The notes under the pieces: model-generated
What the model was told of the DNA's origin: nothing
Seen by the model: the letters and a program-made list of their open reading frames with translations, nothing else
The model's database searches: none
Part shown: positions 322 to 35,801 of the stretch, piece by piece
How the letters are laid out: the number at the start of each line of letters is the position of its first letter
Numbering within the stretch: position 1 is the first letter of the stretch
Origin: a virus
Taxonomy: Duplodnaviria; Heunggongvirae; Uroviricota; Caudoviricetes
IMG/VR virus record: IMGVR_UViG_2737471834_000007
DNA: 36,329 nucleotides
Strand: one strand, 5' to 3'
Translations under genes and position numbers: made by a program

Positions 322-462
322 TTACTGTTTACATTGTAAGAACGCCGCAAACTCCGCACCCCAGAAGCTCATCCGTATTTCACACAGCGAACCGTGCAAC
401 ATCCAGATGATAAGGATGACCGTCGCGCAGAACGTGATGGCCGTAAGCGATTTTTGCGACAT
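322..462 (-). CDS. Hok/Gef-family type I toxin (46 aa small membrane peptide), missing from the ORF track because it is under 60 aa
   Basis: Translation MSQKSLTAITFCATVILIIWMLHGSLCEIRMSFWGAEFAAFLQCKQ: hydrophobic N-terminus, SLCEI motif and E-x-AAFL-x-CK tail resemble E. coli HokA as recalled from memory. AAGGAG lies 8 nt upstream of the ATG at 462; stop TAA at 322-324. Confidence 0.6.
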   Translation of the reverse strand: MSQKSLTAITFCATVILIIWMLHGSLCEIRMSFWGAEFAAFLQCKQ

Positions 463-25824: not shown

Positions 25825-26252
25825 TGTGGTGTTCTCCGGTGTTGTGTCGGCCTGGCGAATGAATTGCGTTGTGGTGAAAAGACCATTCCCGCCAGCGCGG
25901 CCTTGCGATTGACGACATTCAGTGTTCTGGCCAGCGCTGCGTTGTGTTTGTGTGCCTGTTCTTCGTGGTACTTCTGCATGATTTTCCCTGCAGGTGTGCA
26001 CGGCTCCGACTCCTCCGGCGAACGGCGGGTACGAACTGAGACAATCCAGCTCTTATGTTCATTTCCCGGCCGTCTGTTGAGTATATCTGTAATGGTGGTT
26101 TTCGTGGTGCGGTCAGGATTGACCACTGTGATTTCCAGTTCATCGCCGGGTTGTGGTCTCGTGGCAATGTTGTTCAGAGTCAGTAATGGCGTGCGCTGGC
26201 GCATCATGTTGTCAAAGCGCTGGCGCTGCATGGTGCAGTAAAAACGGGTCAT
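25821..26252 (-). CDS. Hypothetical protein (143 aa) translationally coupled to the replication gene
   Basis: ATGA overlap with the gpA-like stop at 26249-26252. Confidence 0.5.
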   Translation of the reverse strand: MTRFYCTMQRQRFDNMMRQRTPLLTLNNIATRPQPGDELEITVVNPDRTTKTTITDILNRRPGNEHKSWIVSVRTRRSPEESEPCTPAGKIMQKYHEEQAHKHNAALARTLNVVNRKAALAGMVFSPQRNSFARPTQHRRTPQ

Positions 26253-28786
26253 TGTGGCCCCTCCGTTTTCTGTGCAGGGTTGAGCTCAATGCGGCGGGTG
26301 TTGTCGTTCCAGTACGCGGTGCGCCCGTCATCCAGGAGAACACGGGCCCCGTTACGCACGGAAATAATGGCTGCGTCAGGCAGTTGTACGCCCAGTGCAT
26401 CGAGTTCGCGGGTGATTTGTGCGGTGATGTGTGGCTCTGCTGTCAGTGCGACATCCACGCGAACGCCGTCAGTGGGCGCACTGATGCCGCCGTTTTTCAC
26501 GGTTTCTGTGTCAGGTGGCGGGTTTTTCAACTGCCGGGTGAGTTGTTTTCTCTGTACCGGTGTCAGCGACCTCAGCCATTCGGTTAAATCACCTTCCGGC
26601 AGGATAAGTCGTTGCTCCCTGCGTCTGTCCTGTTTCCCTTCTGGCGTGGCATTACTGGTTAAATTCTGGTCATGGGGACAGTTATTGCCACGAGTCCAAG
26701 GGGCGACAAAGTCGCCCTCAACGTCAAAATCAGTTTCGCTGGCGCTGTCTTCACCTTCCGGCTTACGTCTGACCAGTTTCCAGGTGTCCGGATGGGTGCA
26801 TATGGTGTACTGCTCCCCGAGTGACGGTGCACGGACACCGTAAATACGTTGCGGAAATTCGCCGTAGTCGTTGGCCTCTTCGGCGGTTTCGTATGCGGTG
26901 CGGACCAGGTACGTGTTGCGGGGAATGAGTACACCACCCTGCCTGGTGATGTAGGTGGCAAAACATCCCACATCAGCGGCGGCCAGTATGGCGTCAATGT
27001 CTTCATTATCGAGGCGCTGTGGTGCCTTCGGGTTACGGGCTATCTGCCCGGCAAGACGGCGGAGTTCGCGCCATACCTGGCGTGGCGGGATACCGAAGAA
27101 CTGGAACTGGCGGATGCGGTGAAGGGCCGCCCAGCCGATGGCGTTCTCCACGGTTTCGGCCATGGTTTTACCTGATTCCCTGTCGGAGTATGGTTTGCCG
27201 GTTTTCGGGTCATTTCCCATAAATACGCTGGCGTCCAGGTTCTTACCGATATAGGTCGCGATATAGCTTGCCGGGGTGCCTTTTGCCGGGTCGATTTTTT
27301 CGCATTTAAAACGCGGGGAGATATCATCACCCAGCTCTGCGCAGTCCTCCCTGATGGCGGCGTTGCGCATGATTTCAGTGATACGGGCTTCGTTTTCCTG
27401 GCTGGTGAATACCAGCATGTGCCAGTGCGGTGTGCCGTCGTGGTGAGGCTCCACGGTGCGTACACCGTACCAGCCCAGCCCGGCTTTGCTGATGATCTTG
27501 CGGACGGCAGCGAAAAATCTGTAAACCAGGTAATCACTGGCATCGCGTACCGTTGCCCCGCAGAATTTCTGGTTCAGGCTGCCGTCATCGTTCACGCTGT
27601 GAAAACGGGAAGGGGCGGTGACGGTGACGAAAAACGCCACATCGCCGCGCGCTTCGGCGACCTGCTCCATTCCCCGGACGCAGGCCATCATCTCGTTGCG
27701 ACGGTTGCGCGGATTGGCGAGTCCGGCCCAGTAGATATCCTCAAGGCTGAACCGCTCTCCCTCTTCGTTCTCGACATCCCAGGCTTTCAGAAAATCGCGG
27801 GTGCGCTGGCGTTTTTCGCGCCAGTCCAGTAACGCTTCATGGCTGATGTATACCGACTCCTTACGTGACACCAGACCTGCGGCGCGTAACAGCTCTTCCC
27901 GCCAGATGTCGCGAAGGTGTCTTAACTGACCGTTCCACCAGTTCGCGCAGGAAAGACGCATGACCGCACCCGGCACCTGTTCCAGGTCGGGGGCGGTGCG
28001 GCGGTCGGGTCTGATTTCCAGCGACGGCCAGCAGGGCGGGGTGATACCCAGTTTTAACGCCATATGTGCCAGCGGCTGGTAGGTCAGCAGCCAGGTGTAC
28101 AGGTCATCATCCCCCTTTCCGGTCCTTTTGATGGCCTCATCACATGCGCGCTCCAGTGCGGCGGAAAATGCGGTGGCGGTCAGGGTGGCAAGGCGCTGAA
28201 TGTCGTCGCGCTCCAGTTGCGGGAGTATCAGGAGTTCATCCAGTCGTTCGCGGGCAGCGGTGGCCTTAAATGCTGTAGTGGCAAACCGTTCATTCACCTG
28301 TCTGATGCGTTTCAGACGGGCACGCAGCCCGTGACGAACGAAGTTATCCGCTGCGTATGCGCTGTTGTTCTTAAGTTCTTTCTGACGGGCATCGTCCTGT
28401 TTGCGTCTGAAGAACGCCAGCCTGCGAATCAACGGTCCGGCGAGAAAGGCCGGAAGGGCGCGCAGCTCTGCCATGGCCTCGGATACCAGCGTGGGTGGGT
28501 TATCGCGTCTGTACCTGGCCAGCTTTTCCAGCCGTATCTGCCGCTCTTCGTCGTGATGAAGGTGCGAATTAATCTGCCTGCCTTTTTCTGTGCATGTCAG
28601 GAAGACGACGGTTTCTTCATCCAGCCGGGCATTAATCCGGATGTCTTCGTTGATGTAGCTCTGAATTGCCCTGCGTAATGCCGTCGGCTTCTGTGGTAAC
28701 GCTCTGCCGAAGGTTTCCGGGTCGATAACGGGCAGTGGAGCGTTCCATGACCAGGCCCATTCGCGGTTGGTGTTCATGGCGATCAC
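26249..28786 (-). CDS. Rolling-circle replication initiator/endonuclease, gpA-like (845 aa)
   Basis: HUH motif (TPHWHMLVF) and paired catalytic tyrosines (SYIATYIGK), characteristic of P2 A-type initiators. Confidence 0.8.
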   Translation of the reverse strand: MIAMNTNREWAWSWNAPLPVIDPETFGRALPQKPTALRRAIQSYINEDIRINARLDEETVVFLTCTEKGRQINSHLHHDEERQIRLEKLARYRRDNPPTLVSEAMAELRALPAFLAGPLIRRLAFFRRKQDDARQKELKNNSAYAADNFVRHGLRARLKRIRQVNERFATTAFKATAARERLDELLILPQLERDDIQRLATLTATAFSAALERACDEAIKRTGKGDDDLYTWLLTYQPLAHMALKLGITPPCWPSLEIRPDRRTAPDLEQVPGAVMRLSCANWWNGQLRHLRDIWREELLRAAGLVSRKESVYISHEALLDWREKRQRTRDFLKAWDVENEEGERFSLEDIYWAGLANPRNRRNEMMACVRGMEQVAEARGDVAFFVTVTAPSRFHSVNDDGSLNQKFCGATVRDASDYLVYRFFAAVRKIISKAGLGWYGVRTVEPHHDGTPHWHMLVFTSQENEARITEIMRNAAIREDCAELGDDISPRFKCEKIDPAKGTPASYIATYIGKNLDASVFMGNDPKTGKPYSDRESGKTMAETVENAIGWAALHRIRQFQFFGIPPRQVWRELRRLAGQIARNPKAPQRLDNEDIDAILAAADVGCFATYITRQGGVLIPRNTYLVRTAYETAEEANDYGEFPQRIYGVRAPSLGEQYTICTHPDTWKLVRRKPEGEDSASETDFDVEGDFVAPWTRGNNCPHDQNLTSNATPEGKQDRRREQRLILPEGDLTEWLRSLTPVQRKQLTRQLKNPPPDTETVKNGGISAPTDGVRVDVALTAEPHITAQITRELDALGVQLPDAAIISVRNGARVLLDDGRTAYWNDNTRRIELNPAQKTEGPQ

Positions 28787-29196
28787 TCCCCGGCAGTTGC
28801 CCGTTGAAACGCGGCACGGTACAGCACAAGAAGGCGCCGGTATTCGTCAATAAAGCCTTCTGCCGTTTTAATTCCTTTCACTGCCACGCTGTGGGTTGTC
28901 ATGTCCAGTACGAGCGCCATTTCTGACGATGACCAGCTGATAACGCTGCTGTCGAGTCCGTTGATGTGGAACAGGCCCAGATTCAGGCTGTGATTCAGGT
29001 CTCTGACGTCAACACGGTAACGGTCATCAACGGTGAAGGAGAAATCACCGGATGTGGCGGCGCTGCTGGCTGCCTGTTTACAGGCGAGGCGGTAATAGTC
29101 GTGCAGATCATTGAGACGGGAAGCGAGGCGTGGATCCACCGCCCACATCCAGTTAAAAAAATCCTGAATATCTGAAAGTCCCTTAACGTTCTTCAT
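28783..29196 (-). CDS. Hypothetical early protein (137 aa)
   Basis: CGGAGG SD; ATGA overlap with the replication gene start. Confidence 0.5.
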   Translation of the reverse strand: MKNVKGLSDIQDFFNWMWAVDPRLASRLNDLHDYYRLACKQAASSAATSGDFSFTVDDRYRVDVRDLNHSLNLGLFHINGLDSSVISWSSSEMALVLDMTTHSVAVKGIKTAEGFIDEYRRLLVLYRAAFQRATAGE

Positions 29197-29264
29197 GTGA
29201 ACCTCCGGTAACAGACGTGCGGAAGCCTCCCGCGCACGGGTGCGGGATGGCTTCAGGATATTGA

Positions 29265-29492
29265 TTAGTGGTGGTATTGCTGGCTGATGAGGTCCTGCAG
29301 CTCCGCGAGATCATCCGCCAGGTAGCTGAAGACTGCCGCGTAATACCCGGCAGCGATACCGCCGTTAAGCCGATGTAATACGTTTGACTGCATGATGAAG
29401 GCGACAGATGCAGCCCGATGGAGTCTGCGGTTGATTTCGGTGCGGATGTGAAGGCGCTCAGCGCGGGCGCGCTGTTGTTTGCGGTTTGCCAT
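29265..29492 (-). CDS. Hypothetical small basic protein (75 aa)
   Basis: GAAGAGG SD upstream of the ATG; Arg-rich N-terminus. Confidence 0.45.
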   Translation of the reverse strand: MANRKQQRARAERLHIRTEINRRLHRAASVAFIMQSNVLHRLNGGIAAGYYAAVFSYLADDLAELQDLISQQYHH

Positions 29493-29780
29493 GGTATGGC
29501 CTCTTCGTTTGTAAGTTTGGGAAACTCACCATCCAGAGGTTCCAAGCTCGGGGTGGCGAGACGTACGGGGTTGGAACTACCGGAAAACGAAGAAACCGGC
29601 CCGACCAGAGTCGGCCCCGTACGCCCCGCCATAATTTGGGTGCGAAAACGGCGTGGCGATACGGTACGCACAAAAAAACCGCTGGCGCGGCTGTGCGCTT
29701 CGTTTGTCGGCGGGGTTCCAATCCCGGCACCCGTTTTATGAGGTGCAGCGGGAATGTAACCCGACAGATTGCGGCATGGC

Positions 29781-29840
29781 AAGCGGTTTTTTTGTGTGTG
29801 CATGATGATCACTCAGTCCGGTAACAGTTCACGGAGCACG
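29781..29840. repeat. Direct repeat copy A (~57-60 bp) at the 3' end of the methyltransferase gene
   Basis: About 85% identical to 30876-30932 by hand alignment (AAGCGGTTTTT..GTGTGTGCATG...ACTCAGTCCGGTA.CAGTTC). Confidence 0.6.
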
Positions 29841-30932: not shown

Positions 30933-31460
30933 AATGTCGTCGACAGTGCGGCGGCGACTGTAAAGAAAATATGCTGTGTTAGTGGTCGCTTTTATTTGCA
31001 GTGTGTGATTGATGTGTTTTGCTATCGCGGCGAATGTCATACACTGTTCATCACGTAGTTCTGTTACCAGTTCCACCAGGCGATCGCTGTATCTGGTCAG
31101 GTGGTGCAGATCTCCGCATTTCTGCAGTCTGTAACCACGTTTACTCAGGTGTTCCTGTACTGTGCGACGGGTACATCCCACCATGACTGCCATTTCCTGC
31201 GCTGTTCTGGTGTGACGGTTTCTGATGAGAAAATTGATTTCTTCTCTGCTCAGCGTTTTTCTCTTGCGACCAATTAATCCACGATCACGTAAAACACGAA
31301 TTCTGTGCATAACTGCGCTGCGGGTGCGTTGAATTCGTTCAGCCATCTGGTATGTGCTGTTTTCCTGATAAAGCGAGGTAAGCATCTCGTCTTCCTGCCG
31401 TGTCCATGGTTTCACGTGCGCAGGGGCTTTGCCTGGTATCCCCATTGGTTGAAGTATCAT
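30906..31460 (-). CDS. Putative DNA-binding protein with helix-turn-helix-like segments (184 aa)
   Basis: ACGGAGGT SD; basic segments of HTH character (STYQMAERIQRTRSAVMHRIRVL; RTAQEMAVMVGCTRRTVQEHL). Confidence 0.5.
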   Translation of the reverse strand: MILQPMGIPGKAPAHVKPWTRQEDEMLTSLYQENSTYQMAERIQRTRSAVMHRIRVLRDRGLIGRKRKTLSREEINFLIRNRHTRTAQEMAVMVGCTRRTVQEHLSKRGYRLQKCGDLHHLTRYSDRLVELVTELRDEQCMTFAAIAKHINHTLQIKATTNTAYFLYSRRRTVDDIVLYELLPD

Positions 31461-31486
31461 CGTGATAACCTCCGTGCCTGTGCCGG

Positions 31487-31699
31487 TTATTCGGTCGGGT
31501 TCAGGGTGTAATCAATGGCGTTTTCAATACGGCGTTTAAGCTCGCGGTGGATCTCACCCGGTGTTACTGGTGCGCCAGGACCGCTCAGCGTTGCCGTGAA
31601 GTCGTCGATTTCCTCCATCAGCAGATTGCGGAGTACAGCGATGTGGTGGCGTACATCTTTTCCTGGTTTGCGTGCGTTGGTGGTGTACTTGCTGATCAT
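31487..31699 (-). CDS. Hypothetical small protein (70 aa from MISKY)
   Basis: ATG at 31699 overlaps the upstream stop (ATGA). Confidence 0.4.
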   Translation of the reverse strand: MISKYTTNARKPGKDVRHHIAVLRNLLMEEIDDFTATLSGPGAPVTPGEIHRELKRRIENAIDYTLNPTE

Positions 31700-31947
31700 G
31701 GTTGCAGTTCTCCATAGCCGTGCCTTTCTGATTTCCATGCTCCCCGGATGGTCATCACTTCGCGTACGGTATTTGCGACTGCCGTGATTTGTGTGCTGTC
31801 AGTCAGATGAATGTAGAGATAATCAGCGTCTGACGGGCACGGCGTGGTTGTTGTGATCAAATAACTTTCCACCATGAATTCGCGGCCCACGGCATCGGTG
31901 AAATGCGTCAGCATGGTTCGCCTTGTGGCAGTGAATATGTTGTTCAT
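31696..31947 (-). CDS. Hypothetical small protein (83 aa)
   Basis: AAAGGGG SD 8 nt upstream of the ATG. Confidence 0.45.
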   Translation of the reverse strand: MNNIFTATRRTMLTHFTDAVGREFMVESYLITTTTPCPSDADYLYIHLTDSTQITAVANTVREVMTIRGAWKSERHGYGELQP

Positions 31948-31959
31948 CGTCCCGCCCCT

Positions 31960-32238
31960 TTATGCTGAAAAGCGACCTGACTGTGCCCGGAGTTCTGCCA
32001 GTTCGCGCTCAAGGCGGAGGGTTTTCGCATGGAGTGCGCCGATGATGTTGTTTGCTGACGTCATGAGCATGTTTTCTATTTGCACCGTCTGGCTGACAAA
32101 AAATGATGGGCTGTTATCGTCGTCCATTTCCGATAGCAATTTCTTTCTTGCATTAATCAGTTCTGCCAGCGCTTTTTGTGTGGCTGTGATAACTTCCTTG
32201 CTGGTGAACATTTCGCTGATTTTTTCATTGCTGCACAT
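31960..32238 (-). CDS. Hypothetical coiled-coil protein (92 aa)
   Basis: GGAG SD; helix-prone C-terminus. Confidence 0.45.
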   Translation of the reverse strand: MCSNEKISEMFTSKEVITATQKALAELINARKKLLSEMDDDNSPSFFVSQTVQIENMLMTSANNIIGALHAKTLRLERELAELRAQSGRFSA

Positions 32239-32319
32239 TGTTCTTTCTCCGTTTTAAAGGTGAGTGAATCTCTCCGCTGTTGCGGATTGTTTGCTGGTTT
32301 TCCTGTTTAATCTGGCGTT

Positions 32320-32445
32320 TTATTTACGGCGTTTTTCGCCAGTAAATAATGATTCGATATCTTTTACGGAATCAACAATTCTTACGATGCCAATCGCGCA
32401 GAGCACGGAAATAATAAGAATCAGCCATGAGATAAATATATTCAT
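32320..32445 (-). CDS. Hidden small membrane peptide (about 41 aa), below the ORF-track size cutoff
   Basis: MNIFISWLILIISVLCAIGIVRIVDSVKDIESLFTGEKRRK: one transmembrane segment and a basic C-terminus; ATG overlaps the upstream stop (ATGA). Confidence 0.4.
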   Translation of the reverse strand: MNIFISWLILIISVLCAIGIVRIVDSVKDIESLFTGEKRRK

Positions 32446-32687
32446 GCTGCCACCTGTGAATAATAAGGTTCGATAATGTCAGAACCGTTAAACAGTTCTG
32501 CCACAATGCTTTTTAATTCTTCCTGTGCTTCTTTGTCGTCGCTGGCAAAGGCGTGAATAAACAGTCCATAGATAGCCTGTTCCATTAATTCGCGTGCGGT
32601 TACGTCTTCCTTCACTCCCAGCTCTGCCAGGCGGAAGTGATAACGTTCCAGTGCATGGTTCACCAGTGTTTTATAGGCTTCGTTCAT
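32442..32687 (-). CDS. Hypothetical small acidic protein (81 aa)
   Basis: GGAGGA SD 8 nt upstream of the ATG. Confidence 0.5.
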   Translation of the reverse strand: MNEAYKTLVNHALERYHFRLAELGVKEDVTARELMEQAIYGLFIHAFASDDKEAQEELKSIVAELFNGSDIIEPYYSQVAA

Positions 32688-32706
32688 GGTCTGAATCCTC
32701 CGTTTA

Positions 32707-33186
32707 TCACCTGCGATATTGAGGATGCTGAAAACTACGACCGCTGATTAATCGGTCTGCTGTTCTTAATGCTTCGTGCAATGTGAAATCCTGTCCGAAC
32801 TGATCATCACCGCGAGTCAGGTAATAACAGGTGTTTCCGGTAATCGGGTTGCGTGCGCCTCTGTGTATGACAATTCCGGCATCATTAATCAGCCAGGTGT
32901 GTTTACCTGTTTGTTTAACCAGATACCCGTCAGGTGTGGCGTGTGTTTCCTGCAGGCTGTAGCGTTTTGTGCTGGCAGCACTGGTGGAGAAACGGTTAGC
33001 GTGGCGTTCTGCATTGCTGCGGAAGCGCTGCTGTGAAGAATTGTGCTGTTGCTTCATACAAAAATATCCCGCTGTTGTTGCGAATTTGTGCCGGGTTTTA
33101 GCCATGCCCGGCGCATGGTTTTGTGGTATTTTTCCACCGCCTGCAGTCTTGAAGGGGCTGTGAATGGCGCGTGTTTTACTAACCAC
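32707..33186 (-). CDS. Hypothetical protein (start uncertain; candidates at GTG 33186, ATG 33105 and ATG 33057)
   Basis: Open frame only; no candidate start has a clear SD. Confidence 0.35.
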   Translation of the reverse strand: MVSKTRAIHSPFKTAGGGKIPQNHAPGMAKTRHKFATTAGYFCMKQQHNSSQQRFRSNAERHANRFSTSAASTKRYSLQETHATPDGYLVKQTGKHTWLINDAGIVIHRGARNPITGNTCYYLTRGDDQFGQDFTLHEALRTADRLISGRSFQHPQYRR

Positions 33187-33199
33187 AAAGGAATAAAAT

Positions 33200-33382
33200 A
33201 TGTCCTATGATGAAAAGGTTATTGATGCGCTAAATGCGGCAATTTCTGTATTAGAGAAAGCGCCGGTTAATCCTCCGAATAAAGGAGAACCATCAAATAC
33301 CATTCGTAAGCTTATGCGCGAAGTGCGTAAACTCACGCTAAAAAAATATCCTCAGGCAAGCAAATATATTTTTCCTGATTAA
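33200..33382 (+). CDS. Small + strand protein (60 aa) convergent with the early operon
   Basis: AAGGAA SD 6 nt upstream of the ATG; its stop overlaps the stop of the convergent 135-aa gene (TTAA). Confidence 0.4.
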   Translation: MSYDEKVIDALNAAISVLEKAPVNPPNKGEPSNTIRKLMREVRKLTLKKYPQASKYIFPD

Positions 33383-33786
33383 TTAACTTCTGTGCCGGAG
33401 ATTTTCTCTGGCACATTTCCGACCTCAATAACCATGTTGTCATTACTTAAAATTTGCCGATAAAGTTCAAAGGCTTCTTCTGCAGGGAAACGGAGCATGA
33501 CACCGCATGCAGGTTCTAAAATCATTCCAATAGTTCCTTTAGCATCGTCACGACAAAAATGGCCGTATTCATCGTCAGGATGCAGGATGACATCTTTCAA
33601 ATCTTCGCCATTCTGAAGCTTTGATTTTAATGCCATCAGACCAGCGAACGTTCTGTGTAATTCGTGGTAGTCAACGCTGATTTCAATCTGCGGTTTTCCC
33701 GGGAAAACCAGCAAAAGCTTCTGGTGTGGTTTTTCGTTTTTCAGATTTTCCAGTTGTTCCAGTAGTACTTCATCTTCGTGATTCAT
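33379..33786 (-). CDS. Hypothetical early protein (135 aa)
   Basis: AAAAGAGG SD upstream of the ATG; acidic; first gene after the Cox-like gene. Confidence 0.5.
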   Translation of the reverse strand: MNHEDEVLLEQLENLKNEKPHQKLLLVFPGKPQIEISVDYHELHRTFAGLMALKSKLQNGEDLKDVILHPDDEYGHFCRDDAKGTIGMILEPACGVMLRFPAEEAFELYRQILSNDNMVIEVGNVPEKISGTEVN

Positions 33787-33890
33787 TCTACTGTTACCTC
33801 TTTTAACTCATTCAGGCAGTGTGATATAGCCCACTAACTGCCCGTGTTTGAAATAACGGCGACGAAAATAATGTGTTAACAATAAAGCAA

Positions 33891-34250
33891 TCATGCGGCC
33901 CTCGCTTTTTTAGTTCTGCTTCGTTCGCTATGTGTTGGCTTAAATAAAAACAGACGGTTTTCCCAGTCGTGCCATTCTTGTGGAGCATTTTCGATCAAGC
34001 GATCACATGCTTCATCCCACGCTTTTCTGTTGATGTAGAGTTCAGCGTTTCCGCCTGGTTTGAGAGGGTCTGCCATATACACGGCTGGCAATTTCCCTGC
34101 TTTAGCCATGCTCACAATGGCGTTAACTGTTTTGCCGATATACATCGCAAACCCTTCTTTTGACAGGAGATGCGAGGGATTTTCTGAAAGTCGAATTTCT
34201 TCACGTTCACGTGCTTTGCGTCCTGTTTTTTGATACTCCCCCTCTGGCAT
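33891..34250 (-). CDS. Cox/Apl-like excisionase/transcriptional regulator (start uncertain: 34250, 34145 or GTG 34355)
   Basis: YIGKTVNAIVSMAKAGKLPAVYMADP resembles P2 Cox (LIGKSTGAVRRMIDKGKLPVIDMTDP) as recalled from memory; divergent from the C repressor gene. Confidence 0.55.
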   Translation of the reverse strand: MPEGEYQKTGRKAREREEIRLSENPSHLLSKEGFAMYIGKTVNAIVSMAKAGKLPAVYMADPLKPGGNAELYINRKAWDEACDRLIENAPQEWHDWENRLFLFKPTHSERSRTKKARAA

Positions 34251-34430
34251 TTCTGACAGGTGATCGCATCGTGTTCCGCAAAGTGACTCAGGCGCGTTTT
34301 GAGTGCTTTCTTGCATCTGATATCCTCCGCCATTGGTGCTCTTTCTAATTGGCACTAGTTGGAACCACTTAGAACATTTGTTTGCTGTTAATATGTGGTG
34401 TTAATCTACACATATGTAGGAGTTTGTCAA
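34251..34430. promoter_or_regulatory. Lysis-lysogeny switch region between the cox-like and C genes, with candidate operator repeats
   Basis: Inverted repeat ATATGTG-N11-CACATAT (34391-34415) and repeated GTTAAT elements just upstream of the C start. Confidence 0.45.
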
Positions 34431-34724
34431 ATGGACATTCCGCAAAAAATTCGCGTCATGCGCAAATCTGAAGATCTCACTCAGCGGGAATTCGCTGATA
34501 TGATTGGAATTTCTTATTCTGCTCTGACCAGTTATGAGTATGGTCGTAACCTTCCTGGCCTTGAGATCACTATCAAGCTTTTCAAGCACCCGAGATTTTC
34601 TAAATACCGCGACTGGTTTTTGTTCGATGAGGTCGAACCAAAGGCCGGGCAGGTGGTACCGGCTCTCGCACACATTGGGCAAAGCGAAGCGGAATCGTCC
34701 CGCTCCGGCAAGAAGACTGGCTAA
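34431..34724 (+). CDS. C: Immunity repressor, P2 C-like (97 aa from the ATG at 34431)
   Basis: C-terminal PALAHIGQSEAESSRSGKKTG matches P2 C (PALAHFGQ...SGQKTG) as recalled from memory; HTH segment near the N-terminus; AGGAG SD. Confidence 0.7.
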   Translation: MDIPQKIRVMRKSEDLTQREFADMIGISYSALTSYEYGRNLPGLEITIKLFKHPRFSKYRDWFLFDEVEPKAGQVVPALAHIGQSEAESSRSGKKTG

Positions 34725-34790
34725 CGGTCCATCTGGCCTTTATTTCTCAAAATTGTGATCAAGATGATGTTTTCATTGGGGGGCTTCCTT

Positions 34791-35801
34791 ATGTCGATTA
34801 AGAAGCTCGCTGATGGCAAATACTGTGTGGACGTGCGGCCTGCTGGATCTGAAGGAAGAAGATTTCGGCGGCGATTTCCTACCCGTGGTGAAGCGGCGAT
34901 GTATGAACGCCATGTTCTGACGCATTATCACGATAAGGACTGGGTAGAAAAACCCATTGAACGTAAAGCGTTAAGCGATCTTCTGGAACTGTGGTGGGTG
35001 TACCACGGTAAGAATCATCGTTATGGCGCGATGAATCGGGTCAGAATTGAAGCGGTTCTTCGTGATATGCGAGAGCTTGGTATTAACAGAAGTGACCATT
35101 TAACCCGAAAAAATATTATCAGATATCGCCTTGAATTAATGAATCGTGGAATTAAGCAGTCAACGGTAAATCGTTATTGCGCAATGATGAGCGGTTTCTT
35201 TGAAAAGCTGATTGATGTTGAAGAGTTTGTGGGTGATAACCCATTTCACGAGATACGCAAGCTAACAATTAATCAGCCTGAAATGGCTTATCTTGCACAT
35301 GATGATATTCCCAGGCTAACCGCGCTTTTATCTGGCGATAATCTTAAGGCTGTATTGTTAAGCCTGGCCACTGGCGGTCGTTGGGGTGAAGTTGCCAATA
35401 TTAAAGGTGAACACATAATTGGTGGGAAGGTTATTTTCATGGAGACAAAGAATGGATCTAGGCGGGTTATTCCTATAGCTAAAGATCTTGAATCTCTGAT
35501 TAAAGTAAAGGCGACGGGAAGATTAATAAAACCCAGTTATGCAACTGTCAGGAGTGCGATAAGGAGTGTTCGACCTGATTTGCCAGTCGGTCAGTCTGTG
35601 CATGTTTTACGACACACATTTGCAACTCATTTTATGATTAATGGGGGGAATATTATTACCCTGCAGCGTATTTTAGGACATAGCACAATCCAGCAAACAA
35701 TGACCTATGCGCACTTTGCACCTGATTATCTCCAGGATGCGGTAAGGTTCAATCCTGTCGCGGAGTTGTCCAGATATTGTCCACAAATAGGGACTAAATA
35801 G
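34791..35801 (+). CDS. int: Tyrosine integrase, P2 Int-like (336 aa from the ATG at 34791; track ORF starts at GTG 34755)
   Basis: MSIKKLADGKYCVDVRP matches the P2 Int N-terminus (MAIKKLDDGRYEVDIRP) as recalled from memory; catalytic HVLRHTFATHFMINGG and LGHSTIQQTMTYAHFAPDYLQDA motifs. Confidence 0.85.
   Translation: MSIKKLADGKYCVDVRPAGSEGRRFRRRFPTRGEAAMYERHVLTHYHDKDWVEKPIERKALSDLLELWWVYHGKNHRYGAMNRVRIEAVLRDMRELGINRSDHLTRKNIIRYRLELMNRGIKQSTVNRYCAMMSGFFEKLIDVEEFVGDNPFHEIRKLTINQPEMAYLAHDDIPRLTALLSGDNLKAVLLSLATGGRWGEVANIKGEHIIGGKVIFMETKNGSRRVIPIAKDLESLIKVKATGRLIKPSYATVRSAIRSVRPDLPVGQSVHVLRHTFATHFMINGGNIITLQRILGHSTIQQTMTYAHFAPDYLQDAVRFNPVAELSRYCPQIGTK

Follow-up and report, generated by a model that had tools for sequence, protein, structure and literature searches.

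Results

Gene Content of the Early Region

The window (the whole stretch of DNA analysed, 36,329 nucleotides) is, by its gene content, a P2-family (P88-like, Xuanwuvirus) prophage. Besides the replication, integrase, repressor and Cox genes listed in Table 1, it encoded a P2-type capsid protein, GPO scaffold, terminase and portal, and a Dam-type methylase. Its nearest annotated relatives were Xuanwuvirus phages (Peduoviridae), including P88 and Citrobacter phage Shae_phiSM, and a near-identical syntenic contig was present in a public read-set assembly.

A small open reading frame (ORF) coding for a 41-residue peptide (MNIFISWLILIISVLCAIGIVRIVDSVKDIESLFTGEKRRK) was found between the Cox gene and replication gene A (Table 1). 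A preliminary description made from the sequence alone had placed a 41-aa ORF at this site without stating the strand, and within the early operon of a temperate phage; both the ORF, on the minus strand, and the P2-family early operon around it were confirmed. The ATGA overlap of its start codon with the stop codon of the upstream gene, encoding a DUF4754 protein, had also been claimed and was read directly from the sequence. The AGGTGG motif within the final DUF4754 codons is the putative ribosome-binding site of the peptide gene, and other clades carried G-rich motifs (GGTGG, GGAGT or GGGGA) at -5 to -10 of the peptide start. Past orf92, the minus strand continued with two 83-aa ORFs, a 184-aa HTH protein, the methylase and the replication genes.

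Table 1. Coordinates of the peptide gene, its predicted parts and the surrounding features in the window.
Feature	Position	Strand	Remarks
GPA replication protein	26249-28786	minus	P2-family marker
orf92	31960-32238	minus	Next early gene after the peptide gene
5-bp hairpin	32273-32286	minus	Sense RNA UCCGC-AACA-GCGGA, then GAGAUUCAC; in the 81-nt spacer (32239-32319) from the peptide gene to the next early gene
Membrane micro-protein gene	32320-32445	minus	41 codons, ATG start, TAA stop
KRRK basic end	32323-32334	minus	Codons 38-41; one clade only, dispensable
Predicted juxtamembrane amphipathic helix	32341-32382	minus	Codons 22-35 (RIVDSVKDIESLFT); hydrophobic moment, column profile
Predicted transmembrane helix	32383-32439	minus	Codons 3-21 (IFISWLILIISVLCAIGIV); Kyte-Doolittle mean over 19 residues 2.92, column profile, AF2
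ATGA start/stop overlap	32442-32445	minus	Peptide ATG 32445-32443, DUF4754 TGA 32444-32442
DUF4754 gene (upstream partner)	32442-32687	minus	81-aa acidic helical protein; Pfam DUF4754 62 bits, phrog_2549 79 bits
SD-like AGGTGG	32450-32455	minus	4 nt 5' of the peptide ATG; putative ribosome-binding site
DUF4761 gene	32707-33057	minus	Between orf135 and DUF4754
orf135	33379-33786	minus	First gene after Cox; no family match
Cox gene	33891-34355	minus	Faces C repressor gene
C-type HTH repressor gene	34395-34724	plus	Faces Cox gene
Candidate early promoter Pe	34403-34430	minus	TTGACA-16-TAGATT, upstream of cox; consensus scan
Integrase gene	34755-35801	plus	P2-family marker

On the minus strand, a consensus scan of positions 31400-34800 returned no promoter-like site other than the candidate promoter Pe, whose position matched the P2 and 186 switch regions. 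A weak terminator-like site was present at 33084-33068 (minus strand), after the orf135 module. Because of this site and of the module, it is somewhat doubtful that transcription from Pe reaches the peptide gene unattenuated in the window prophage, and Pe-driven transcription through both is assumed in what follows. The region from 33200 to 33786 held orf135 and a 60-aa ORF on the opposite strand (33200-33382, plus), both without a family match. P88 lacked this pair, its cox gene being followed directly by DUF4761, and both ORFs were called in a near-identical contig (L087). The orf135 region may be an inserted accessory module.

Architecture and Predicted Topology of the Peptide

The 4 kb around the locus contained 79 ORFs of at least 20 aa, so that the peptide ORF by itself was not significant; it exceeded chance through its conservation across loci. 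Its best 19-residue Kyte-Doolittle mean (2.92, residues 3-21) exceeded that of every other ORF in a six-frame set of 137 from the window, all ATG-initiated and 30-60 aa long (runner-up 2.08). AF2, with an alignment of six sequences, predicted one continuous helix from residue 2 to residue 40, with pLDDT above 90 in residues 1-20 and lower in the tail. Hydropathy and the predicted single helix supported the earlier claims of a hydrophobic N-terminal helix and of a single-pass membrane peptide, and on these predictions the peptide is in all probability inserted in the membrane. Its positive charges were confined to the region after the membrane helix (R22, K28 and the end), so that, by the positive-inside rule, the N-terminus is predicted to be periplasmic and the C-terminus cytoplasmic.

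In a column profile built from 45 unique full-length peptides, residues M1, S6, W7, I23 and F34 were invariant, and F4, L10, G19, I24, K28, I30 and E31 came close to it. Variation in the tail (positions 25, 29, 32 and 36) was confined to one helical face, and the hydrophobic moment of residues 20-35 was 0.5-0.73. Judged from this profile, the conserved design comprises the membrane helix (residues 3-21) and the amphipathic helix (residues 22-35), with the KRRK end outside it. The basic C-terminus that had been ascribed to the peptide was present in the window (KRRK, with a net charge of +2 for residues 22-41) but was not conserved: 39 of 50 unique homologues ended after residue 37 and lacked KRRK, codon 38 being TAA instead of AAA. 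In the P88 clade, which carried this TAA, a second TAA persisted at the old stop position.

Copies of the P88 type contained a run of seven A at codons 28-30 (GTG AAA AAA ATT), where the window had only four. Truncated (30 aa, ending in SVKKD) and frameshift-extended (45 aa) variants all broke at this run (loci L029, L032 and L059; proteins P0013, P0014 and P0023). They could result from homopolymer slippage, sequencing error or decay; their existence implies that some prophages can do without the tail or without the gene as a whole.

Database Matches

The peptide was 70.7% identical (tblastn; 76% over 37 aligned residues) to gp07 of Escherichia phage P88, annotated as "membrane protein" (YP_009113050.1). 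A RefSeq homologue (WP_267237464.1) was annotated as "hypothetical protein", and some phage records named the gene "putative membrane protein"; the names of P88 gp07 and WP_267237464.1 are automatic predictions. P88 gp07 shared with the window peptide its position, the ATGA overlap on DUF4754 and the early operon of Xuanwuvirus prophages; it differed in its end, since P88-type copies stop at residue 37 without KRRK. The gene was thus already in public annotation, which the preliminary description had overlooked. Its word "hidden" was accurate relative to an ORF-length cutoff, but not with regard to GenBank and RefSeq, in which homologues are annotated, or to assemblies, in which they are called.

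The peptide matched no family in Pfam, PHROGs, PADLOC or NCBIfam, and a literature search found no paper on the peptide, DUF4754 or P88 gp07. Scanning 1.84 billion representative proteins with the peptide profile gave 16 matches, and the 13 sequences retrieved all belonged to the same family, frameshifted and truncated versions included; because only its own family was returned, the family appears narrow and enterobacterial. Matches in the scan with the peptide HMM were at 1e-12 to 4e-21.

Conservation and Selection

Loci were gathered, from scans and from annotated records, with the upstream DUF4754 protein as anchor and not with the peptide, which avoided circularity. This gave 87 loci including the window, which reduced to 50 distinct nucleotide sequences and 41 distinct peptides. 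Many of the loci were near-identical E. coli prophages, so that the independent evidence comes from about 4-5 clades. A hydrophobic overlapping ORF of 30-50 aa was kept in all 87 loci, with the ATGA overlap in 86 and GTGA, still a start codon, at locus L037. The 50 unique nucleotide versions coded for 37 aa (39 versions), 41 aa (8), 30 aa (2) and 50 aa (1). The 50-aa version belonged to a divergent Salmonella locus (L005), whose peptide was 22% identical to that of the window and retained FSW...AIxIVR.

Over all pairs, the sense frame gave a Nei-Gojobori dN/dS ratio of 0.26, and four of the five remaining frames gave ratios of 1.1-1.75. Between pairs of clades, pS was 0.42-0.79 and pN 0.15-0.25, with dN/dS of 0.09-0.30 (Fisher p from 0.018 to 1e-7), and both the transmembrane part and the tail of the peptide were constrained. 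The fifth, an antisense frame whose wobble positions are also those of the sense frame, had a dN/dS of 0.35, which is deceptive; the 70-aa ORF in this frame (32264-32476, plus) was rejected as a gene and regarded as an echo of the sense frame, because stops interrupted it in 26 of the 50 unique relatives.

Compared with the window, the three other main clades had identities of 66-78% for the peptide and 41-59% for DUF4754. The pattern was reversed in the closest relative of the window (L004; 68% for the peptide vs. 81% for DUF4754).

Loss of the frame in relatives had been named beforehand as one observation that would speak against the gene; the frame was conserved in 87 of 87 loci, with purifying selection in the sense frame only. 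The earlier opinion that the ORF is very likely translated also agreed with the conserved ATGA or GTGA overlap, the SD-like motif and dN/dS of 0.1-0.3. On this comparative evidence, 32320-32445 (minus) can be taken with high confidence as a genuine translated gene.

Association With DUF4754

The DUF4754 protein of the window had a net charge of about -8 (counted from the sequence), and its AF2 model (single sequence) consisted of four helices with a pLDDT of 78. Foldseek against PDB gave no fold match to the model with E below 3, and a sequence search of PDB returned nothing informative.

DUF4754 was present in 14 records of the phage collection, and real peptide matches occurred in precisely these 14. 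Seven of the eight peptide matches in plasmid records had an annotated DUF4754 gene under the match, and in one phage record (503458) frameshifts broke both genes. The pair was invariant amid three unrelated groups of upstream genes and eight unrelated groups of downstream genes. The genome-contig scan gave no match with the single DUF4754 protein and only three loci with the DUF4754 alignment, and a scan of viral contigs with the divergent Salmonella-type DUF4754 gave no match. Throughout the loci compared, the peptide gene and DUF4754 go together as an invariant two-gene unit, an aspect that the preliminary description had missed. This pattern leans towards the peptide being a functional partner of DUF4754.

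Spacer Downstream of the Peptide Gene

The hairpin in the spacer was present in 79 of 87 loci, though the downstream gene fell in eight unrelated groups. It had two compensatory pairs and two G-U pairs workable only on the sense strand, because of which a role on the antisense strand is disfavoured. Rfam had no match in 32100-32600. The hairpin was considered as an intrinsic terminator comparable to tR1 of 186 or to that of P2, and rejected as such: those terminators have U-tracts and unrelated sequences, and the hairpin had no sense-strand U-tract. It may serve in RNA processing or stability, or mark a recombination boundary. In one clade (loci L008, L009-L014 and L017), the hairpin spacer was replaced by a second small hydrophobic ORF (MKNVKAILTIATVWVIFQVSALIWLALKIWE, 31 aa), about 15-110 nt past the peptide stop and without a Pfam match.

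Other Features of the Window

Near the left end of the window, an ORF of 46 aa at 322-462 (minus; MSQKSLTAITFCATVILIIWMLHGSLCEIRMSFWGAEFAAFLQCKQ) matched the Hok/Gef family (Pfam PF01848, 28.4 bits vs. a cutoff of 22) and is likely a type I toxin gene; the Rfam gathering scan reported no Sok-type RNA for the window. Gathering-level Rfam matches to the C4 antisense RNA (83 bits) and to the Hfq-binding RNA isrK (68 bits) were located at 29549-29636 (minus) and 29672-29746 (minus), respectively, with the Dam methylase gene on one side and, on the other, a 75-aa ORF of the "Derepression" family (29265-29492, minus; PF25738, 28.6 bits). This region looks like an RNA-controlled antirepressor module of the P1/P7 or Gifsy type inside a P2-family prophage. 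A 209-aa ORF with a GTG start (29183-29812, minus) is probably not a gene.

Discussion

Proposed Function

The best overall explanation of the locus, favoured with moderate confidence, is an inner-membrane micro-protein that is coupled to DUF4754 and modulates the host in lytic growth. The peptide would be a 41-residue bitopic protein of the inner membrane, crossing it with residues 3-21 and placing residues 22-35 as an amphipathic helix on, or just off, the cytoplasmic face. Ribosomes terminating DUF4754 translation at the TGA would re-initiate at the overlapping ATG, so that both proteins would be produced together; because the unit lies in the early lytic operon running from Cox to replication, they would be made after infection or induction and not in a stable lysogen. 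The peptide would act at the inner membrane with the acidic helical DUF4754 protein, as membrane anchor or effector, and its conserved membrane helix (F4, S6, W7, L10 and G19) may bind either itself or a conserved inner-membrane protein of the host. The unit would then be a non-essential, host-modulating early function in the operon position of 186 fil and dhr. That position is a weak argument for host modulation in lytic growth, and this part of the explanation is put forward tentatively.

More speculatively, DUF4754 and the micro-protein might form a two-component early function of P88-like phages directed at a conserved enterobacterial inner-membrane target, for example by depolarising the membrane in the manner of a viroporin, or by inhibiting a divisome, transport or insertion protein. 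If the micro-protein were the target-binding part, this would explain why three of the four clade comparisons show it to be better conserved than DUF4754.

Alternative Explanations

The preliminary description had proposed an exclusion, host-takeover or toxic factor. This was a guess at class, for which no homology, PADLOC match or paper was found in support.

Among the alternatives, a stand-alone membrane-damaging toxin or viroporin-like protein survives best, and is nevertheless rather unlikely. The peptide would oligomerise and dissipate the inner-membrane potential, like Hok, TisB, Fst or the viral channels composed of a transmembrane and an amphipathic helix, and would thereby stop host functions or block the entry of superinfecting phage DNA during the lytic cycle; DUF4754 would either have no connection with it or act as a modulator. 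Size and architecture fit, with a very hydrophobic helix followed by an amphipathic or charged segment, and so does the predicted early expression from the lytic operon; the second small transmembrane ORF that follows the peptide in one clade suggests, in addition, that the site collects membrane peptides. However, the peptide had no toxin match in Pfam, whereas the Hok/Gef ORF elsewhere in the window was recognised; neither a dedicated promoter nor an antisense RNA was apparent at the locus; and its strict coupling to DUF4754 is left unexplained. The conserved S6, W7 and G19 suit specific helix packing as well as they suit pore formation.

A superinfection-exclusion or immunity factor protecting the lysogen, like T4 Imm and Sp, P22 Sie or HK97 gp15, would likewise be a small phage-encoded inner-membrane protein, and exclusion was among the earlier suggestions. 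The gene is, however, preceded by cox and by about 2 kb of the early lytic operon and runs opposite to the C repressor gene, and no minus-strand promoter-like site was found nearer than Pe, so that it should be silent in lysogens. Exclusion in the lysogen is improbable because the operon is a lytic one under repressor control; moreover, searches of PHROGs, PADLOC and Pfam gave no homology to known exclusion or defence proteins (Imm, Sp, SieA/B and gp15 included).

Slightly less probable still is a leader peptide of the MifM or SecM type, in which translation or membrane insertion of the nascent chain would control the downstream hairpin and the following early genes, the mature peptide being functionless. 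MifM consists of an N-terminal transmembrane segment plus a C-terminal tail, a layout that the peptide resembles, and the conserved, covarying hairpin is found 28-40 nt past the stop codon, ahead of varied genes. Yet the C-terminus, where an arrest motif would be expected, varies in sequence and in length (37, 41 or 50 aa, or truncated at 30 aa), and a ribosome terminating at the stop codon would be too far from the hairpin to melt it. The hairpin also leaves uncovered the SD of the downstream gene, which is 15-25 nt further on, and purifying selection extends over the whole peptide, membrane helix included.

A chance ORF, kept by constraint on DNA or RNA or by the opposite-strand 70-aa ORF, would agree with the shortness of the ORF and with the low-dN/dS antisense frame being open in the window, but was rejected on the comparative evidence, given the stops in that frame among relatives, the sense frame uninterrupted in every one of these relatives, its start unchanged and its stop at either of two fixed positions, synonymous sites near saturation between clades (pS 0.5-0.8) with pN of only 0.15-0.25, and a hydropathy unequalled among the small ORFs of the window.

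Significance

The general kind of protein is known, being a small phage-encoded membrane protein, and its family is narrow, uncharacterised and already annotated as hypothetical; the practical gain is modest because a functionally blank gene of this sort was already in public annotation. Micro-proteins shorter than 50 aa are routinely lost to ORF-length cutoffs, and across most clades this one was under stronger constraint than its annotated 81-aa neighbour. With DUF4754 it makes up a fixed cassette that is shuffled among the early operons of P2-family phages. Finding its target would add to the phage tools that act on the inner membrane of enterobacteria and would assign a function to DUF4754.

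Comparison With Known Systems

The location of the gene between cox and replication gene A, in the early operon, does not fit a holin or antiholin, which would be expected beside the endolysin in the lysis cassette and to be expressed late. Type I toxins (Hok/Gef, TisB, Ldr and Fst) are 20-55 aa long, have one hydrophobic helix and often reside on mobile elements (PMC12648545). The peptide is like them in size and in its single hydrophobic helix, and unlike them in matching no toxin family (Pfam, NCBIfam) and in its predicted translational coupling inside an operon, with no separate promoter or antisense RNA apparent; on the opposite strand of the peptide locus, promoter-like sites were no commoner than in shuffles.

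With TatA and TatE, the peptide shares an N-terminal transmembrane helix, a Gly hinge and an amphipathic helix. Membership of that family was rejected: the NCBIfam match, over residues 5-33, scored 15.7 bits against a cutoff of 104, and the peptide is less than half as long. The resemblance to TatA is, on these scores, compositional and architectural.

Regulatory small membrane proteins such as Blr, MgrB, AcrZ and MgtS are bitopic, of about 30-50 aa, and bind larger inner-membrane proteins through their transmembrane helix (PMC12648545). The window peptide differs from them in being encoded by a phage and coupled in an operon to a soluble partner, and shows no significant homology to them. The transmembrane helix of Blr aligned weakly (7 of 26 residues identical). 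Homology to Blr was rejected, the pairwise E of 2e-4 being that of a one-sequence search between two transmembrane helices, and Blr was not recovered in the whole-library scan.

The cell-division inhibitor fil and the host replication inhibitor dhr of phage 186 are small non-essential genes at an equivalent place in the early operon. No sequence similarity to the peptide was found in 186, which was absent from the 15 phage-collection records matched by tblastn, and neither fil nor dhr carries a membrane-protein annotation in the 186 record. The likeness is positional only: in 186, as for the pair in the window, these genes follow the switch genes and precede the first spacer or terminator.
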